This document shows, one piece after another, positions 1 to 6,937 of a stretch of DNA of 64,000 bases (position 1 is the first letter of the stretch; each line of letters starts with the position of its first letter). Under the pieces are notes generated by a model. The model made no database searches, was not told the DNA's origin, and saw only the letters and a program-made list of their open reading frames with translations. Source of the stretch: Candidatus Bathyarchaeota archaeon (GTDB lineage: Archaea; Thermoproteota; Bathyarchaeia; Bathyarchaeales; Bathycorpusculaceae). The DNA lies in the NCBI GenBank assembly GCA_963806535.1, contig CAWDYC010000005.1, positions 128,001 to 192,000 of the forward strand, read 5' to 3'. A program made the position numbers and the translations under genes.

Positions 1-389
1 AATATAACTGTTGGAACAATAAACAAAATCATGTCTTCTCCATTTGTAGAGAATTTGTAATCTTTTAAAAGCCGATTAAGTTGGTTTTTAGTAAACATCG
101 TGCATGAGATTGCACCAACTGCTAAGCCAGCAATTATCCAAGCCACTAATTGGAAAGCTGAAATAGGGTACGTTTCAAGGTTTCGGGAAATAGAAAAGGT
201 AAGAAACCCGTAAAGGGTTATCCAGAAAATTGCAAGTGCTCCTGCAACTTTCGTGGCGCTTACTTTGTATTGGGGCGGAGTTATCTGCGGTGGCTTTTTG
301 TTTTCATAGTCCATATTTGATCTTCTGCTAATTATGTATGGCTCTTTTGGCAACCAACCGTGAAAAAGTTTTTCTAACCGCTTTTTCAA
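1..389 (-). CDS. Membrane protein with N-terminal GWLPKEP motif (runs off window start)
   Basis: Not in the ORF track. Manual translation from TTG at 389 gives MKKRLEKLFHGWLPKEPYIISRR..., followed by hydrophobic segments (VAGALAIFWITLYGFL). Confidence 0.75.
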   Translation of the reverse strand, partial: MKKRLEKLFHGWLPKEPYIISRRSNMDYENKKPPQITPPQYKVSATKVAGALAIFWITLYGFLTFSISRNLETYPISAFQLVAWIIAGLAVGAISCTMFTKNQLNRLLKDYKFSTNGEDMILFIVPTVI

Positions 390-392
390 TTT

Positions 393-1445
393 TCAACCAC
401 TCCCAAAATTCAGTTGGTCAACCCAGAGATTCCCAAAAACTTTATCATTGAATCCTATTTTTGCAGTGACATTTACTGAAAAATGCGCATCTTGGGGAAC
501 CCATATGTCAGTTGAAAATGTCTCGCTTTGTTTGGGGTTAAGTGTTGATTCTATCCAGCCTATTTTTGTTTGGTCAGAATTAAACAGGACAGTTTCAAAG
601 TTTCCAACGTACAAGGTTGCGATGCCAAGTCCGATGCCTGCCGGGGTTCCGGGACTTGCTTGCGGCTCATGGGACATCCCCCAGAGTATCCAATCAAGGG
701 GCATAGTTCCGTTTTGGGTTTCTACAGAAACATTTACGATGGCCGAGTTAAAATTTCTTTGTGGACACTGCAAATCTATCTCTAAATAGTAGTAGTCTTT
801 CTTGCTGTCAAGGTCAGCATATTGGTATACGTTGACGCTGACGTTAAAACTGCCGTTGTTACTTATTTGGTTCTGGCTTTTTACTATTGTTTTTGAAGGA
901 TTAATTATTTGTGGATCCGTGGCATAAACAGGCGCAAACGTTGCGGCGCATAAGATTACTAATAATGCCACGGGCGCCACTTGAATCAACTTTGAGGACG
1001 CGGTACCTTTGCCCATGCGTAGCGTAACCAAATAAACTAAGACAACAGCTTCCAAAGGCAGAGCGAACCTCAGTGGAACAATGTAGAATGCAATAAGCGA
1101 TATTACTAAAAATATGATGGCGATGTTTACCCAAACTTTTTTCATTGTAAGCAAGCCCGCACCCACAACAAACAAAGCTGCGCTGTCCATCGCTGCTACT
1201 GCAGCCATAATGAACTGCACGTTAAAAGAGAGGTAGCCAAGTTGTGTTACCTGCTGAATAATTGCTAATATTGCGCCAAAACCGAATATCCAAAACAAAG
1301 CAGTAACGAGCTTCAAGCCTAGTGGCGCTCGGCTTAAGAAAATTCTTCGGGCTTTCTTATCCTGTGAATTTGACGCATTTAAACTTCTGGGAAGGCTTGG
1401 TTCTTTAGGTAACCAACCGCGAATACGGCCTTGAAGGTATCTCAG
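393..1445 (-). CDS. Multi-pass membrane protein with extracellular C-terminal domain and N-terminal GWLPKEP motif
   Basis: Track ORF 393..1316 stays open upstream as LRYLQGRIRGWLPKEPSLPRS... back to a CTG at 1445, which overlaps the upstream TGA (CTGA). Confidence 0.75.
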   Translation of the reverse strand: MRYLQGRIRGWLPKEPSLPRSLNASNSQDKKARRIFLSRAPLGLKLVTALFWIFGFGAILAIIQQVTQLGYLSFNVQFIMAAVAAMDSAALFVVGAGLLTMKKVWVNIAIIFLVISLIAFYIVPLRFALPLEAVVLVYLVTLRMGKGTASSKLIQVAPVALLVILCAATFAPVYATDPQIINPSKTIVKSQNQISNNGSFNVSVNVYQYADLDSKKDYYYLEIDLQCPQRNFNSAIVNVSVETQNGTMPLDWILWGMSHEPQASPGTPAGIGLGIATLYVGNFETVLFNSDQTKIGWIESTLNPKQSETFSTDIWVPQDAHFSVNVTAKIGFNDKVFGNLWVDQLNFGSG

Positions 1446-1630
1446 TGGTTTCGCATGCTCAGCTCCGGAATAAGTTTACTGAAAATTACGCGAGCTATTT
1501 TGGCTGGGTGAATGCTTGCTTTGTTTTCTTCCGTTATACCTCTTTCTTTGGCAATGTCGATTACGAAGTTGTTGAGGTGCGAATATCTGCTTTCGACTTG
1601 AAGGGGGAATTCCACTTTAGTAACTGGCAT
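1442..1630 (-). CDS. Small protein homologous to the C-terminal domain of the upstream HTH regulator
   Basis: FVIDIAKERGITEENKASIHPAKIARVIFSKLIPEL aligns with FLIDIARERGVEIEGCEKIHPAKLAHIVFSKLIPEL of 2441..2929. ATG at 1630, alternative start 1657. Confidence 0.65.
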   Translation of the reverse strand: MPVTKVEFPLQVESRYSHLNNFVIDIAKERGITEENKASIHPAKIARVIFSKLIPELSMRNH

Positions 1631-2444
1631 TTTCTTCGACCTGATACTTGTTTGCATTTTTTCTTAGATTAACTAATGAAATAGCCATGGCTACAATCAA
1701 ACTTGCTATTCCTACGGAAAGGAGAATATTGCCTTGGTTTCTATAGGGGTAAGAGACGATGAACCCGCTATGGGTTAGGTCAATTGGTGTTGTTATGGTA
1801 AACAAAGGTGAGGGCAGTTTTCCAGTCGCATTGCAGTAGAAACTGAAAACAACGTCTCTTACTATGGGTTGCTGGTCGCTCGGGCCGACTTCAAATGGTG
1901 GTTTCATAGAGATTGCGCTAATAATCAAGTCCTGCTTTTTAGTTTGGATGGTCGAAAAAGTACCAGTATAGTTGGTCTGTTGAGGACTGTAAGAGCTTGC
2001 TGAGACGTTGTAGGATGCGTACCTTAAAGTGACAAAGTAAACTCCTGCTGTGAGATTACTGGGCTCATTTAGATATACGTAGATTGGTGCCACCCAGTTA
2101 GAAGTGCCGACTCCTTCTAATGGCGGTGAAACAAAGACATTGATACTGCAGTTATAGTTCGTTCCGTTAAACTGGATAGGTGTTCGTAAAGACCCCCATT
2201 CTACGGGCAATTGGTAAGAACTCTGCACCTTAGAGACCGAGTTTAGGTATAATCCGCTAAGTATTAGACTAACGGCTAACACTACTACAATGAAATGGGC
2301 CAAATTAATTGCCGATTTTTCCGTTATCTGTCTGAGTTTCAAGGGCTTGGTTTCGAGCTTTATCTTCAATGGTTTGTTAGGATTTAGAGGCTCTTTCGGA
2401 AGCCAACCTCTAATTCTGCTTTGCAAACATCTTTTGGCTTTCAT
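1617..2444 (-). CDS. Two-TM membrane protein with extracellular loop and N-terminal GWLPKEP motif
   Basis: Begins MKAKRCLQSRIRGWLPKEP, with TM helices near both termini. ATGA overlap with the HTH gene. Confidence 0.8.
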   Translation of the reverse strand: MKAKRCLQSRIRGWLPKEPLNPNKPLKIKLETKPLKLRQITEKSAINLAHFIVVVLAVSLILSGLYLNSVSKVQSSYQLPVEWGSLRTPIQFNGTNYNCSINVFVSPPLEGVGTSNWVAPIYVYLNEPSNLTAGVYFVTLRYASYNVSASSYSPQQTNYTGTFSTIQTKKQDLIISAISMKPPFEVGPSDQQPIVRDVVFSFYCNATGKLPSPLFTITTPIDLTHSGFIVSYPYRNQGNILLSVGIASLIVAMAISLVNLRKNANKYQVEENASY

Positions 2445-2929
2445 TGGCTCGTCAGCTCCGGGATTAATTTGCTAAAAACTATGTGTGCCAATTTCGCTGG
2501 ATGGATTTTTTCGCAACCTTCAATTTCCACGCCTCTTTCTCTTGCAATATCGATTAGGAATTGTTTTGTTTGGTTTAGGAAGGCTGCGTCGGTGACTTCT
2601 TCGGGGTTGTCATGCCAGTACCAGACTTTTAGGCCATGGCTTGTCGTGTAAGTTATGATGGCTTTTCGTTTGAGGACAGGGTGATAACCGAGCAGTATAG
2701 CTTGTTTTGGATACAGTTTTGTTAATTGAAGATCGTTTACTTGCGCCACATCCAGAAGTGTAGTAGCTATTTTCGCTTCGGCCGTCAAGCGTGTTTGATT
2801 TACGTATTGGCGTGTAGTGTTGAGTTTGTCAGCTATTTTGGTTACTGAAAAACCCTCGCTAATTAGGGACCAGATGACTTTTTGACTTTGGCTTAGCGGT
2901 GAGGAGAACGAACAGTTCGGACTCATCAA
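2441..2929 (-). CDS. HTH transcriptional regulator (LuxR/sigma-region-4-like HTH plus unknown C-terminal domain)
   Basis: LSQSQKVIWSLISEGFSVTKIADKLNTTRQYVNQ helix-turn-helix pattern. Confidence 0.8.
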   Translation of the reverse strand: MMSPNCSFSSPLSQSQKVIWSLISEGFSVTKIADKLNTTRQYVNQTRLTAEAKIATTLLDVAQVNDLQLTKLYPKQAILLGYHPVLKRKAIITYTTSHGLKVWYWHDNPEEVTDAAFLNQTKQFLIDIARERGVEIEGCEKIHPAKLAHIVFSKLIPELTSQ

Positions 2930-2933
2930 TATC

Positions 2934-2968
2934 CACGTAAATACGTGAGTATTTACAAGTATTTATAA
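2934..2968 (-). promoter_or_regulatory. Putative TATA box and overlapping operator for the HTH gene
   Basis: Inverted repeats CACGTA-AA-TACGTG and GTAAATAC-N4-GTATTTAC; AGTATTTA repeated at 10-bp spacing; TTATAAAT on the minus strand about 30 bp upstream of the start. Confidence 0.45.
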
Positions 2969-3082
2969 TTTGCTAAAATTGCTACACTTGAAAGTTTTCG
3001 CGGTGAAATTCTCACGCTGTACGCTGATTTTTAATTAAAATTGTTTTAGCGGTTTCCAGCCCATAAAGGGTTAGTAAAGAAA

Positions 3083-3151: not shown

Positions 3152-3994
3152 ATGGGAAGCATGAGCAAAGGTTTTGCATTATTATTCATTCTAACCATGA
3201 GTGTTTCATGTCTAATTCTGTTGATTATTAGACCTTCATATGCTCAGTCAATACCAACTCCATCTGTTCCAGAATTTAGTTTGAAGTATTTTACAAAATC
3301 ACTTGATTCAGAACCTGAAACTTCAATAAACCCCTACACTGGACAGAATGAAACAATCTCATCAGGCTATCATTATGACACAAGAAATGTAGAAATAACT
3401 ATAAAGAATCAGCCATTCAACCCATTTACAGATTCAAATGGAAACCATGTTGATTTGAACTATAATGTTACTTTCAAAGGACATTATACAGATACTTGGA
3501 GCCACTATCCTGACAGCACATACGAGGACCTTTTCAGCATGTCAGCTACTGGCGACACAATTATTAATGTATCTTTAGAAGGTTGGCCAGAACTTCCTAA
3601 GGGTGCTCTGTTAGATTTTAGATTGCAAGCAGTAATAGGACATTATAACTACGACACACCCCCATCAGGAACAGATTATATAACTGGTTTTACTGCCTAT
3701 CAAACAAGCAATTGGAGTAATCCACTGACGGTAACTGTCGGAGAAACTTCAAGCACAACTTCAACAAGCCAAACGGCTACACTAACGTCTACATCCACGC
3801 CGACCGTTCCAGAATTTCCAATATGGATCCCGATGTTTTTTACTGCAACGGTAATCTTCGGTTGTTTATTTGTGTACTTCAGGAAACACAATCCTGTAAC
3901 TAATCGCAATTTAGAGTGGGAGAATAACAAGAGAGTTATGGGAAATAATAAAAAGAAAGCAAACGATACTAAAAGATGCTGGAAGCCTGAGTAA
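3152..3994 (+). CDS. Secreted/surface protein with PEF-CTERM-like sorting signal
   Basis: Signal peptide, Thr/Ser linker, then PTVPEFP + TM + basic residues. Confidence 0.8.
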   Translation: MGSMSKGFALLFILTMSVSCLILLIIRPSYAQSIPTPSVPEFSLKYFTKSLDSEPETSINPYTGQNETISSGYHYDTRNVEITIKNQPFNPFTDSNGNHVDLNYNVTFKGHYTDTWSHYPDSTYEDLFSMSATGDTIINVSLEGWPELPKGALLDFRLQAVIGHYNYDTPPSGTDYITGFTAYQTSNWSNPLTVTVGETSSTTSTSQTATLTSTSTPTVPEFPIWIPMFFTATVIFGCLFVYFRKHNPVTNRNLEWENNKRVMGNNKKKANDTKRCWKPE

Positions 3995-6937
3995 ATGCAT
4001 AAATCGCTTTTGAGTTTGGTTTTAATTGGATTAATTGTTTCCTTAAGCTTATTTGGCACCGTACGGTTAAGCACGGCTCAAATCGGCACAAGCGTCAAGG
4101 GAACAATAAGTTCAGACACAACCTGGACGCAAGCGAAGAGCCCGTATAATCTGATGGGAACAGTAAATGTTGCCAGTGGAGTGATTTTAACAATTGAAGC
4201 TGGAACTGTCGTAAACTTGAACGGTACCAGCATAATAGTTAACGGCACTTTGAACGCAAACGGCAGTGCCACTAATAATATTCAGTTTAACGGTGGGAAC
4301 CTCAACAATGGGGTTTCTCTGGCTGGTTCAGATGGTCAATCAATAATTTCAAACAGCATTTTTACCGGCCAAATTATCGCCGGAGGCTCATCGACAATTT
4401 CAAACAACTTTATCATAGGAAGAATCGACATAAAGGGTGGTTCACAAACAATTGAGAACAACACAGTTTTGGGGTCTTTTAACGCGGACGGAATAGACTT
4501 TTTTGATTCAGCTAACGCCTACGCCTTAATCTCAGGTAACGTAATTTCCAGTTCTTGGAGAGGCATAGCAGTAACCGCCGGAAGCAGTGCAGTCATCGAA
4601 AGAAACCTTCTCTACAACAATACATACGCTATCGTTTCCGGAGCCAGCTCATATATGAATACTTCAGGATCCAACACCACAATTCTGAATAACACTGTTA
4701 CCGACAATGTGGGGGGAATTAGCGTAATAGGTTCTTTCTCTCCAACAATCATGAGCAACAATATCCAAAACAACAGCCAATACAGCCTTTCGTTAGCAGC
4801 ATCCAAGTCAGATATCAATGCAACTTACAATTGGTGTACTCTAAATGTTACAGCCACTTACAATTGGTGGGGAACAACAAATACAACTATTATCGGCCAA
4901 ACAATTCTTGATTCCAACTATAATTCTCCATCAGGCACCGTTACATTTGTTCCCGTCTTGAACGCACCAAATCCTCAAGCTCCAACTTATCCAAAAACAT
5001 GGATAGTTGATCCTCAAGGAACAGGTGATTTCATGTCGATTCAAGCTGCAATAAATGCATCCGCCCCTGGAGACACCATTTACGTTAAAAGCGGAACATA
5101 CTGCGAGCATCCTCTAATTACAAAAACCTTAACGTTGATTGGTCAAAGCGCGACTTCAACCATAATAGACGGTCAAGGTCAAAACAGAACATTGACTGCT
5201 CCCGGTTTGCTTCCTGAATCAATCGGAAGCATCCTAGCAATTGTAGCAAATGGCGTCACGATAAATGGTTTCACGATTCAAAACAGTGTTTCAGACGGAA
5301 GCGCAATCTGGCTTCAAGGTTACAATTATATAATGATTCAAAATAATATTGTTGCTAACAACAGTGACGGCATCAGGATACTTAATTCTACAGGAAACAT
5401 CATTAGCGGCAATACTTTAAGAAATAACTCAAATACCAGTCTAGGATTTGACGCATCCTACAACAATTCAGTTGTCAGCAATTATATTGCAAACAACAAT
5501 ATTGGAATAGGCGCAGGCATTCCATCGTACAACAACACAATTTCGTACAACAATATGACAGGTAATAATTACGGGTTCTATTTAGCAATTTATAACAGCA
5601 CTTTCTTTGGAAATAACTTTAACAACAATGTTCAAGTTGCCTTCTATGGAACTTACCCAAACAATTGGGATAACGGTGCTTCTGTTGGAGGGAACTTTTG
5701 GAGTGACTATCGAACAAAATATCCGAATGCAACTCAAATAGGCACTTCAAGAATTGGAAATACTCCTTACGTTATTGATTCAAACAACAAAGATAACTAT
5801 CCACTATGGACCACACAAGAAGGTGGACCATCGCCTTCACCAGCTCCAACGCCAACATCACACAACCCGACAATAACATTGAATCCTTCTGTGGGCCAAG
5901 TAGGCACTGGAGTTGTGGCCACGGTAACTGGGTTTCCCGCGTATGTATCAATTCTCTTTACTTTTGGCACAATAAACGGCACTCAGAACGTCGGGACGTT
6001 AACCTCAAGCAGCGGTGGCGGAACTGTTCAATTCAATGTTCCCCAAGTTCCTAACGGTATGTATAATGTTTCTGCGATCGGATCTCAAGGCGGCTTTGCT
6101 ACGGCAACATTTTTCGTCGGTCAAACACTATATCCAACTCCGACACCTACACTTTCACCAACCACTACCCCTACCCCAACGCAATCTCCAACGCCAACAC
6201 CCACCCCAGCACCCACGCCAACACTGCCAGCGCCAACCGTTACCGTTTCCTGCCAAAGTTCTGCTTTTTACTCAAACTTCAAAGTAGACATCACTGGAAC
6301 CCTGTCGGGAAACGGAATAGGAATAGCAAATGCTCCAATCTTGCTTTCTATCAGCGTTGATGAAGGCAAATCATGGACTGGACTAACAACTGCAGGCACT
6401 GATAATAGCGGTAACTTTGCTGCCGTTTGGTTTCCATCAGCCTCAGGCATTTATCTTCTTAATGCACGCTGGGATGGAAATTCATCTTTTTCAGATGCCA
6501 ACACAACAATCAATTTTGCCGTTTTACCCTATCAGGAACAGAGTGTTTTTTCCGTTTCTTCCAACTCAACCATCTCCGCGTTTGCTTTCAACTCCACAAG
6601 TCATGACCTAAGTTTCAGCGTCAGCGGACCCTCAGGCACAACAGGATACGTCGATATATATGTTCCAAAAACACTTATCGGTGACGCATCCATTCTCAAA
6701 GTTTCTCTTGACGGAAACAAATTAGAATATACCATCGCATCGCAAGGAGATTCTTGGCTCTTATCTTTTACTTATCACCATAGCATTCATCAAGTAACCA
6801 TAAACTTGGGGACTGCAACATCAGTTTCGTCAACACAAAGCCAAACTGAAGAATTAGTCGTCAGTGCAGCCGCAATCACTGCAATATTAGTTGTTGCAGT
6901 TGTGCTGATTCTTCGAAAACGAAAAAGCAAGAATTGA
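3995..6937 (+). CDS. Large surface protein with right-handed parallel beta-helix (NosD/pectin-lyase-like) repeats, Pro/Thr linker and C-terminal TM anchor
   Basis: Asn-rich PbH1 repeats; NATYNWWG, SIQAAINA and GGNFWSDY motifs; RKRK tail. Confidence 0.85.
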   Translation: MHKSLLSLVLIGLIVSLSLFGTVRLSTAQIGTSVKGTISSDTTWTQAKSPYNLMGTVNVASGVILTIEAGTVVNLNGTSIIVNGTLNANGSATNNIQFNGGNLNNGVSLAGSDGQSIISNSIFTGQIIAGGSSTISNNFIIGRIDIKGGSQTIENNTVLGSFNADGIDFFDSANAYALISGNVISSSWRGIAVTAGSSAVIERNLLYNNTYAIVSGASSYMNTSGSNTTILNNTVTDNVGGISVIGSFSPTIMSNNIQNNSQYSLSLAASKSDINATYNWCTLNVTATYNWWGTTNTTIIGQTILDSNYNSPSGTVTFVPVLNAPNPQAPTYPKTWIVDPQGTGDFMSIQAAINASAPGDTIYVKSGTYCEHPLITKTLTLIGQSATSTIIDGQGQNRTLTAPGLLPESIGSILAIVANGVTINGFTIQNSVSDGSAIWLQGYNYIMIQNNIVANNSDGIRILNSTGNIISGNTLRNNSNTSLGFDASYNNSVVSNYIANNNIGIGAGIPSYNNTISYNNMTGNNYGFYLAIYNSTFFGNNFNNNVQVAFYGTYPNNWDNGASVGGNFWSDYRTKYPNATQIGTSRIGNTPYVIDSNNKDNYPLWTTQEGGPSPSPAPTPTSHNPTITLNPSVGQVGTGVVATVTGFPAYVSILFTFGTINGTQNVGTLTSSSGGGTVQFNVPQVPNGMYNVSAIGSQGGFATATFFVGQTLYPTPTPTLSPTTTPTPTQSPTPTPTPAPTPTLPAPTVTVSCQSSAFYSNFKVDITGTLSGNGIGIANAPILLSISVDEGKSWTGLTTAGTDNSGNFAAVWFPSASGIYLLNARWDGNSSFSDANTTINFAVLPYQEQSVFSVSSNSTISAFAFNSTSHDLSFSVSGPSGTTGYVDIYVPKTLIGDASILKVSLDGNKLEYTIASQGDSWLLSFTYHHSIHQVTINLGTATSVSSTQSQTEELVVSAAAITAILVVAVVLILRKRKSKN

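Follow-up and report, generated by a model that had tools for sequence, protein, structure and literature searches.

The DNA window analyzed here is 64,000 nt in length and represents positions 128001–192000 of contig C5 (C5:128001-192000) in the 2.95-Mb, 12-contig genome of a Candidatus Bathyarchaeota archaeon. Bases 1–2968 of the window are one minus-strand gene row. It is led by a gene for a small regulator with a helix-turn-helix (HTH) domain, and genes for membrane proteins (MP1 to MP4) are found behind it (Table 1). A first-pass annotation had noted that three of the membrane proteins have a short N-terminal motif in common, and all three motifs are at the positions claimed. The N-terminus of MP1 is QSRIRGWLPKEP and the corresponding stretch of MP2 is QGRIRGWLPKEP. 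MP3 carries KLFHGWLPKEP, with LFHGWLPKEP at 339..368. The motif is referred to below as the handle. The regulator open reading frame (ORF) has the C-terminus ...IHPAKLAHIVFSKLIPELTSQ. A second full locus is present on contig C10, where a 160-amino acid (aa) regulator with 69% identity is followed downstream by two motif proteins. Apart from the motif, the proteins are unrelated, as had been stated for those in the window: when the motif is removed from the six proteins of the genome, the best pairwise blastp match has E = 0.10 over 11 residues.

Table 1. Features of the gene row. Coordinates are window positions unless marked C5.
Feature	Position	Strand	Description	Basis
Regulator gene	2441..2926	-	161 aa from ATG 2926; alternative TTG at 2929	ORF
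MP1	1617..2444	-	275 aa; ATGA overlap with regulator stop at 2441..2444	ORF
MP1 motif RIRGWLPKEP	2388..2417	-	MP1 has two predicted transmembrane segments and a sequon-rich middle	sequence
71-aa ORF	1442..1657	-	remnant of second regulator gene; ends ...IHPAKIARVIFSKLIPEL	
MP2 open frame	393..1445	-	~350 codons; RIRGWLPKEP at 1398..1427	
MP3	1..389 (whole gene C5:127736..128389)	-	217 aa; TTG start at 389	
MP4, fourth motif protein	C5:127125..127739, just beyond window		MNVKKSLENRIRGWLPKEP; 4-nt overlap with MP3	
Putative operator palindrome GTAAATAC-TCAC-GTATTTAC	2937..2956		between TATA box and regulator start codon	
Putative B recognition element (BRE)/TATA (AGCAAA TTATAAATA)	2960..2974; TATA-like box 2960..2968	-	putative promoter element	sequence reading

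The linkage of regulator and handle was surveyed in 80 related loci from species-representative genomes, and a regular expression for the regulator core located the regulator in 77 of them. The handle was identified by the pattern [GW]W[LIVMF]P, either in frame within ~45 codons past the regulator stop or in the first 40 residues of six-frame ORFs of at least 60 aa. The motif is located directly after the regulator stop in 65/77 loci. A 4-nt start/stop overlap is found in 64/77 loci (63 ATGA, 1 TTGA), and the Trp (W) of the motif is partner residue 14 in 60 of these 64. A total of 137 out of 2280 six-frame ORFs bear the motif, and 133 of the 137 are downstream of the regulator on the same strand. 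The number of handle genes per array is zero (12 loci), one (31), two (21), three (7), four (7), five (1) or six (1). A hidden Markov model (HMM) of the 22-aa N-terminus was compared with the six-frame translation of the whole genome that contains the window. It gives six matches at E <= 4.4e-4, all of which are in the two regulator-led arrays, and the next match has E = 1.9. The proposed co-occurrence of motif and regulator is borne out in both surveys. The membrane-protein module in the window is one copy of a Bathyarchaeia-wide two-part system that consists of a ~160-aa transcription factor and one to six membrane proteins. In loci L047, L058 and L077 (Bathycorpusculum and Nitrososphaerota metagenome-assembled genomes), where the regulator tail is ...HQIFSKLIPELKT, a handle ORF is found nearby on the opposite strand and none is directly downstream.

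The handle has the consensus MNVKKSLENRIRGW(L/F)P(K/Q)EP and is ~19 residues long, with W at residue 14. Conservation extends to positions outside the pattern used for selection. Numbered relative to the motif, these are M-12 (98 of 133 copies), K-9 (99), L-6 (91), I-2 (94), R-1 (116), E+5 (97) and P+6 (99). In the same 133 copies the third-position entropy is 1.62 bits for the G codon and 1.80 bits for the P codon. Third codon positions vary freely where the amino acids are fixed, which implies selection on the peptide.

The bodies to which the handle is attached are highly diverse. Blast clustering sorts the 139 partner bodies into 40 groups, of which 22 are singletons. MP3 belongs to the largest partner family, a blast cluster of 19, and has 14 blast relatives among the partners of other loci. 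The partners are 64–663 aa in length and have 1 to 9 predicted transmembrane (TM) segments. Three of 133 partners reach a Pfam cut-off, and each of these is a NosD/right-handed beta-helix protein (Beta_helix). No anti-sigma Pfam family is found among the 133 partners at E <= 1e-3, and the PADLOC library of anti-phage defence and the PHROGs phage library each give 0 families for five regulator and partner proteins at E <= 0.01. The content of the arrays differs strongly between close relatives. MP1 has an orthologue in locus L006 with 73% aa identity and a ratio of nonsynonymous to synonymous substitution rates (dN/dS) of 0.245. These comparisons support a pattern of one handle on many bodies. 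The first-pass annotation had described the bodies as variable extracellular sensors; the diversity is evident, and the sensor label is not supported by proteins with 1 to 9 TM segments and so few Pfam matches.

At least one TM segment is predicted in 132/133 partners by a simple hydropathy scan, and the N-terminal tail that precedes it has a median length of 42.5 aa. Within 15 residues of the first segment (TM1) there are on average 3.10 Lys and Arg (K+R) before the segment and 0.58 after it; 121 partners have more before, 4 have equal numbers and 7 have fewer. Sequons (NxS/T) number 0.59 per 100 aa in the N-terminal tail and 1.84 per 100 aa after TM1. According to the positive-inside rule, which is the basis for orienting the N-terminal tail, the K+R excess before TM1 places the handle in the cytoplasm. 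The peptide is thus predicted to be cytoplasmic, as had been supposed, and the density of sequons agrees with this orientation.

The structure of the regulator was modeled with AF2 (predicted local distance difference test, pLDDT, 89.9; predicted template modeling score, pTM, 0.82). The model displays three helices at residues 14–64, four strands at 68–104, and helices at 115–131 and 144–155. The N-terminus is an HTH of the sigma-region-4/LuxR/Tfx-like type, and the C-terminal domain is built from the four strands and the last two helices. The earlier suggestion that the peptide docks on this C-terminal domain was followed up by controlled complex prediction, with the regulator (alignment of 70 rows) and MP1 residues 1–45 (alignment of 46 first partners). 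The complex has an ipSAE interaction score of 0.74 (runs 0.74, 0.64 and 0.78) vs 0.00 for the best of three controls, and in silico the suggestion holds. The same mark is reached by 116/157 solved complexes and 2/215 mismatched pairs, which is a rough guide only, as the alignments here were user-supplied. The runs share at least 81% of contacts. In the predicted interface, partner residues 10–18, which are the conserved motif, face regulator residues 65, 91, 101–110, 112, 117, 121, 124, 143–146, 148–149 and 152. Four of its regulator residues, W103, Y104, P144 and F152, belong to the ten columns that are nearly invariant in the family alignment. The prediction supports binding between handle and regulator.

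A palindrome is present upstream of the regulator in most of the related loci. A TATA-like box is followed by GTAAA[TC]A-N6-T[AG]TTTAC, which ends ~10 nt before the ATG, in 45/62 upstream regions; the box resembles CTTAAATA and has a constant position ~40 nt before the ATG. A palindrome between TATA box and start codon is the usual site of an archaeal repressor. Genome-wide, the strict palindrome pattern is matched twice, each time at a regulator promoter, vs 0.2 matches expected from shuffled sequences. In a position weight matrix scan the sites at the regulator promoters score 27.7 and 23.2; C3:143806 comes next with 16.7. In this position the distant paralogues on contigs C4 and C9 show GTAAGC...GCTTAC palindromes, and other subfamilies show TGTAAGC..GCTTACA or TGTCAACC..GGTTGACA. 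The position of the palindrome, its conservation and its change with subfamily point to binding by the regulator, and its confinement to the two regulator promoters suggests autoregulation.

The palindrome of the C9 paralogue, GTAAGCC-N6-GGCTTAC, is found at its own promoter (C9:91639) and in a second copy at C9:90397..90416. The second copy is in front of ABC-transporter ATPase and permease genes located behind the partner gene, so the C9 subfamily may control a transporter. ABC-type genes are also found behind the regulator in L068, L075, L079 and L084.

It is probable that the handle binds the C-terminal pocket of the regulator, which is thereby coupled to the membrane proteins whose genes follow its own. 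The pocket would consist of strand 101–110 (KVWYWHDNPE) and helices 117–124 and 143–152 (HPAKLAHxxF). By inserting here, the handle would tie the regulator to the membrane proteins. The palindrome beside the operon's TATA box would be bound by the regulator, presumably a dimer, which would thereby repress its own operon. Handles that hold the regulator at the membrane would relieve this repression. Sequestration of this kind would be anti-factor or Mlc/PtsG-like, with operon expression set by how much of the membrane proteins is present or by the state they are in. Membrane sequestration of an autorepressor is the reading that we favour. Handle binding in the cell, binding of the regulator to the palindrome, repression, and inactivation by the handle are steps that we infer.

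The same contact could have the opposite sign. The handle would then be a co-repressor or activity switch, and a regulator with a bound handle would be the form that binds the operator, either exclusively or more tightly. As they accumulate, the membrane proteins would shut their own operon in a homeostatic negative feedback that acts at the membrane. As a design this has merit: with the palindrome at its own promoters alone the circuit is self-contained, which a co-repressor fits at least as well as sequestration, and negative feedback is the stabler arrangement. The 4-nt overlap hints at coupled synthesis of the regulator and its first partner, the ~23 residues between handle and TM1 could act as a tether, and the docking prediction fits equally well. 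However, the operon DNA would have to reach the membrane, and the model gives no sign that the handle alters the HTH or a dimer interface. We regard the co-repressor arrangement as unlikely, yet deserving of more weight than the other rivals considered below.

Sister subfamilies of the regulator have a different type of handle. Here too a membrane protein is encoded by the gene after the regulator, in most cases with the same 4-nt overlap. Its handle has the form Phi-x-x-W-C-[PRQ]-x-P, and TM1 begins ~25–35 residues in. Examples are SLWRWCPQPERMK, FFSDWCRQPERIQ and NLIDYCPQPQ. Cys residues at aligned positions 112, 115 and 121 (CxxCx5C) are present in 38/128 regulators, and an aromatic-Cys-[PRQ] motif is present in 29 of the 36 partners called for these. 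At least two of the seven misses (L127 and L143) are wrong start calls, and the W-C motif is present in their partners. Where the regulator is Cys-less and a partner was called, the handle is also Cys-less (83/83). Position 121 is Cys in 23/23 W-C pairs and Thr in 69/75 W-(L/F/I/V) pairs. In the predicted complex of the window proteins, residue 121 contacts the Cys position of the handle (partner residue 15), and the interface includes residue 112 as well. A 3+1 Cys site shared by regulator and handle is thus suggested, as either a metal site or a disulfide. The Cys trait was mapped on a quick tree that is unrooted, and the window subfamily would be a Cys-less derivative.

A broader proposal can be made from these comparisons, which we put forward tentatively as possible rather than probable. 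Bathyarchaeia would have their own principle of signalling, in which one regulator pocket reads a universal handle that has been grafted on dozens of unrelated membrane proteins. In the Cys-type form, which we provisionally take as the older one, the one Cys of the handle and the CxxCx5C of the regulator would together make a Cys4 site, an intermolecular metal or disulfide clasp, and the Cys-less form of the window would be held by hydrophobic contacts. If this is true, any membrane protein could be wired into gene control by gaining ~19 residues, and the Cys4 clasp would make the membrane tether redox- or metal-sensitive.

The handle could alternatively be read by other machinery, as a sorting, insertion, processing or degradation signal, and have no contact with the regulator. 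A fixed distance from the N-terminus, as seen for W14 in 60/64 partners, is typical of N-terminal signals, one regulator suffices for several handle proteins per operon, and 12/77 regulators have no adjacent handle gene. On the other hand, the handles of the genome are confined to regulator-led arrays (6/6), a regulator precedes 133/137 handle ORFs in the related loci, and the type of handle switches together with the regulator subfamily. The complex prediction beats three controls with an interface made up of conserved residues of both partners, and TM1 starts too far in (median 42.5 residues) to resemble a signal peptide. A separate reader of the handle is quite improbable on this evidence.

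The second unit in the window had been taken for a further regulator and partner. It is instead a decayed duplicate and not a working pair. The window was aligned with close relative L051, where an intact regulator is followed by the MP2 orthologue. Homology of the 71-aa ORF is limited to ~1445..1579, which represents the last ~45 residues of the regulator with its last two helices (...NNFVIDIAKERG...IHPAKIARVIFSKLIPEL) and no HTH. It has 78% identity over 41 aligned codons. At the junction, ACATGA in L051 (regulator stop/partner ATG) is ATGCGA in the window, such that the partner ATG is changed to GCG, and the regulator frame of the remnant extends four codons past the L051 stop position. In MP2 none of ATG, GTG and TTG is present from the upstream TAA to the motif; a canonical start first appears past the motif, as TTG 1316. 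The translational coupling described for two regulator and partner pairs thus stands for MP1, with its ATGA overlap, and fails for MP2; the CTGA overlap that had been proposed would require a CTG start, which puts W at residue 9 rather than 14. The MP2 body is otherwise intact, with 83.8% identity to the L051 orthologue and a dN/dS of 0.31 over 340 codons, so that loss of the start would be recent or translation unconventional. MP2 may be either a recent pseudogene or an unconventionally translated gene.

Similar remnants of the regulator are found elsewhere. L006 has a still shorter one (...RPAKLAHLIFSKLIPELKT; L006:6300..6430), which is fused in frame to the end of the MP1 orthologue and is followed by ATGA and a handle gene. 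Pieces that consist of the C-terminal part alone are also present among database representatives (P0218 and P0219). The last-two-helix remnants (FLNQ...IAKERG...HPAKLAHxIFSKLIPEL) are small ORFs or C-terminal fusions to the upstream membrane protein, and a handle gene is always next. We read the remnants as probable scars of tandem duplication of regulator plus partner, in which the spare regulator was later lost. Their recurrence as the last two helices may represent a constraint on the junction or ribosome-binding site, a recombination hot spot, or a half-pocket decoy, all of which are possible. GGAG is present ~10 nt before the next ATG at the remnant-bearing junction, as read from the sequence. 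A search for Rosetta-stone fusions among the longer representatives gave no acceptable candidate: P0188 resembles a regulator read-through into a handle-like stretch and is unconvincing, and P0151 and P0210 have other N-terminal domains.

Such junctions bear on the idea that the motif is a translation or nascent-peptide element, or a recombination site for the swapping of cassettes, and is not involved in protein binding. Arrays diverge strongly between close relatives, remnants of the regulator 3' end recur at cassette junctions, and the GGAG is within the conserved P-E codons ~10 nt before the partner ATG. However, the third codon positions are near-saturated where the amino acids are fixed, and a nascent-peptide role leaves both the joint change of handle Cys and regulator Cys triad and the docking unexplained. 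A nucleic-acid or nascent-peptide role is very improbable, the least credited of the explanations weighed here.

Several points weigh against the sequestration of an autorepressor by handles. The window's own second unit is broken, and 12/77 loci lack a motif gene immediately behind the regulator. A simple 1:1 anti-factor is at odds with arrays of up to six handles per regulator. Plain sequestration of an autorepressor amounts to positive feedback, and the sign could as well be opposite, with handle binding needed for repression. The palindrome is at the regulator's own promoters alone in this genome, and no downstream regulon is visible. The partner chain in the predicted complex has a pLDDT of just 44–46, and the score was calibrated without user alignments. 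The Cys covariation is one change on the tree, with a support of 97 for the Cys-less clade; it agrees with the model and does not represent independent statistics. The whole case is computational.

Comparison of the regulator model with known structures gives matches confined to residues 1–66. HTH residues 9–60 align best with EnfR of the Tfx family (8hno_A), with Z 9.4 and a root-mean-square deviation (rmsd) of 0.9 A over 52 residues, at 27% identity. Further HTH matches are EsrB (7vim_A, Z 9.3) and DesR (4ldz_B, Z 8.9), which make a structural likeness to the LuxR/FixJ (GerE) type clear, and many sigma region 4 chains (Z 7–9). The C-terminal domain was also folded alone (pLDDT 86.8) and compared by VIA-align with 48,161 chains, EnfR included; the best Z is 3.9 and none is >= 5. 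Matches at Z 3.3–3.4 include EVH1, Ran-binding and PH-like domains, which bind proline-rich peptides, with scores too weak to use. Foldseek finds nothing in the PDB at E <= 1e-3 for the whole regulator model, and its whole-chain match to 8hno is weak (E 0.19, template modeling score 0.32–0.38, rmsd 10–13). The low scores of the C-terminal domain are no proof that its fold is distinct from that of EnfR/Tfx.

Sequence searches give a similar picture. The C-terminal domain has no sequence match in Pfam, NCBIfam or PDB chains, and the whole regulator has sub-threshold HTH matches alone in Pfam and NCBIfam (GerE, HTH_23, TIGR00721 and sigma70-ECF). GerE scores 12 bits vs a gathering cut-off of 23.5, and the best of 12 divergent relatives scores 21.4 bits. 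The Tfx model TIGR00721 matches residues 11–55, i.e., the HTH alone, with E 0.023 and 14.6 bits vs a cut-off of 60.25. TFX_C (PF14601) is absent at E <= 1 for the regulator and at E <= 0.1 for 12 superfamily members. NCBIfam sigma70-ECF matches region 4 alone (E 0.08, 12.6 bits vs 42.9), and no sigma2 match is found in the remaining beta/alpha domain. In the ESM Atlas the nearest named clusters are Tfx (0.87–0.88), which is a lead only. We call the regulator Tfx-like in its HTH and outside the Tfx family by the curated cut-off, with a C-terminal domain that has no recognised relative.

The regulator family is small and compact. There are 1386 database homologues at E <= 1e-3. The best 120 relatives are 77–100% identical and ~160 aa in length, and the named ones are annotated as 'hypothetical protein' or 'CsgD family' regulators. 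The family profile finds 293 proteins at E <= 1e-3 among 1.84 billion cluster representatives, with 27 at E <= 1e-30. The superfamily is present in 132/401 sampled Bathyarchaeia genomes (E <= 1e-8), often in several copies. In a phylum-wide sample 41/401 genomes have a match at E <= 1e-5, and many of these matches span the HTH alone. Loci related to that of the window are almost all from Bathyarchaeota/Bathyarchaeia.

Several genes near the arrays are of interest. Two genes of 280 aa and 980 aa at window positions 3152..6937 (+) are divergent from the regulator promoter and are likely to encode surface proteins. They show a signal-like segment at the N-terminus and a TM segment at the C-terminus, along with many NxS/T sequons, PT-rich linkers and beta-helix-like repeats. 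No palindrome was found in front of these two genes. Paralogous genes of ~310 aa, at C5:125405..126325 and C10:87775..88713, encode a membrane-anchored, sequon-rich protein near both regulator-led arrays. The C10 copy is divergent from the regulator, and such neighbours may co-evolve with the arrays. A 159-aa ORF near the array (C5:124844..125323) has an apparent winged-helix N-terminus followed by hydrophobic segments, and may be a membrane-bound transcription factor of another kind. Approximately 5–6 kb before the window start, at C5:121616..122918, two adjoining ORFs resemble by eye a split terminase large subunit, with a Walker-A-like SRQSGKTTT in one and a nuclease-like C-terminal part in the other; they may represent a degraded provirus. 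An origin of the module from a mobile element, considered for these broken terminase-like ORFs ~6 kb from the array, was rejected: the module is chromosomal and is conserved in many genomes.

Transmembrane signal transduction in archaea is poorly understood. The module is present in about a third of the sampled genomes of Bathyarchaeia, an abundant and uncultured lineage of sediments and soils. It is a defined set that consists of a 160-aa protein, a peptide of 10–19 residues and a 20-bp operator, and is testable in vitro without cultivation. If the docking is real, this would be a compact orthogonal set of peptide, protein and operator, with a C-terminal domain for which the fold searches made here gave no match at Z >= 5. 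A metal or redox switch between two proteins could come to light in the Cys-type relatives. If the broader proposal of a universal handle is true, archaea would have in it their first described partner system of the anti-factor type.

The view that no named system matches the module agrees with the searches, in that none is found in Pfam, NCBIfam, PADLOC, PHROGs or the literature. A literature search, made without subscription journals and supplements, found no published description of the module and no archaeal partner system comparable to sigma/anti-sigma pairs or membrane-held repressors.

The first-pass annotation had likened the module to extracytoplasmic function (ECF) sigma/anti-sigma pairs, for which we take sigmaE-RseA, SigW-RsiW and the zinc-binding ZAS anti-sigmas such as RsrA to be the relevant examples. 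The gene adjacency and the HTH likeness agree with this. The regulator is a small DNA-binding protein with a sigma-region-4-type HTH, and several of the sigma chains that it matches were solved with their anti-sigma. It adjoins a downstream membrane-protein gene, probably co-transcribed, with a cytoplasmic N-terminus that is predicted to bind. The operon is apparently autoregulated, and a Cys cluster is at the interface in the sister subfamilies. However, there is no sigma likeness beyond the HTH: sigma region 2 is absent, and a sigma factor role does not apply, as archaeal RNA polymerase works with TBP/TFB. The predicted binding element is a peptide of ~10–19 residues in place of the ~80-residue helical domain of an anti-sigma, and it is the regulator, not the membrane partner, that carries the Cys triad. 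A regulator can have up to six partners, all unrelated, and its putative target is a palindrome beside a TATA box rather than a -35/-10 promoter. With a palindromic operator between TATA box and start codon, an autoregulated repressor that is held or modulated by membrane partners fits better than a copy of an ECF sigma/anti-sigma pair, and the comparison holds as an analogy only.

The Tfx family, i.e., Tfx/MTH0916 (PDB 1NR3) and EnfR/TON_1525 (PDB 8HNO), differs in that the portion of the EnfR literature available in PMC10570040 describes no membrane partner for Tfx and EnfR. The likeness is in the proteins themselves, which are archaeal, are ~150 aa in length, and have an N-terminal sigma-region-4-like HTH and a separate C-terminal domain.

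In the logic proposed here, close parallels are Mlc-PtsG and BlaI/MecI, where the activity of a repressor is set by contact with, or the action of, a membrane protein that it regulates. Mlc is sequestered by PtsG, and BlaI/MecI are controlled with BlaR1/MecR1; these are repressors set by membrane proteins of their own regulon. They belong to unrelated families, none of which is archaeal. Each has one dedicated partner with a folded domain or protease, whereas the module has a short handle on dozens of unrelated membrane proteins. Control of a transcription factor by a membrane partner is known in kind; here it would be exerted via a short shared peptide handle, with no folded anti-factor domain, in families that are outside the libraries searched.

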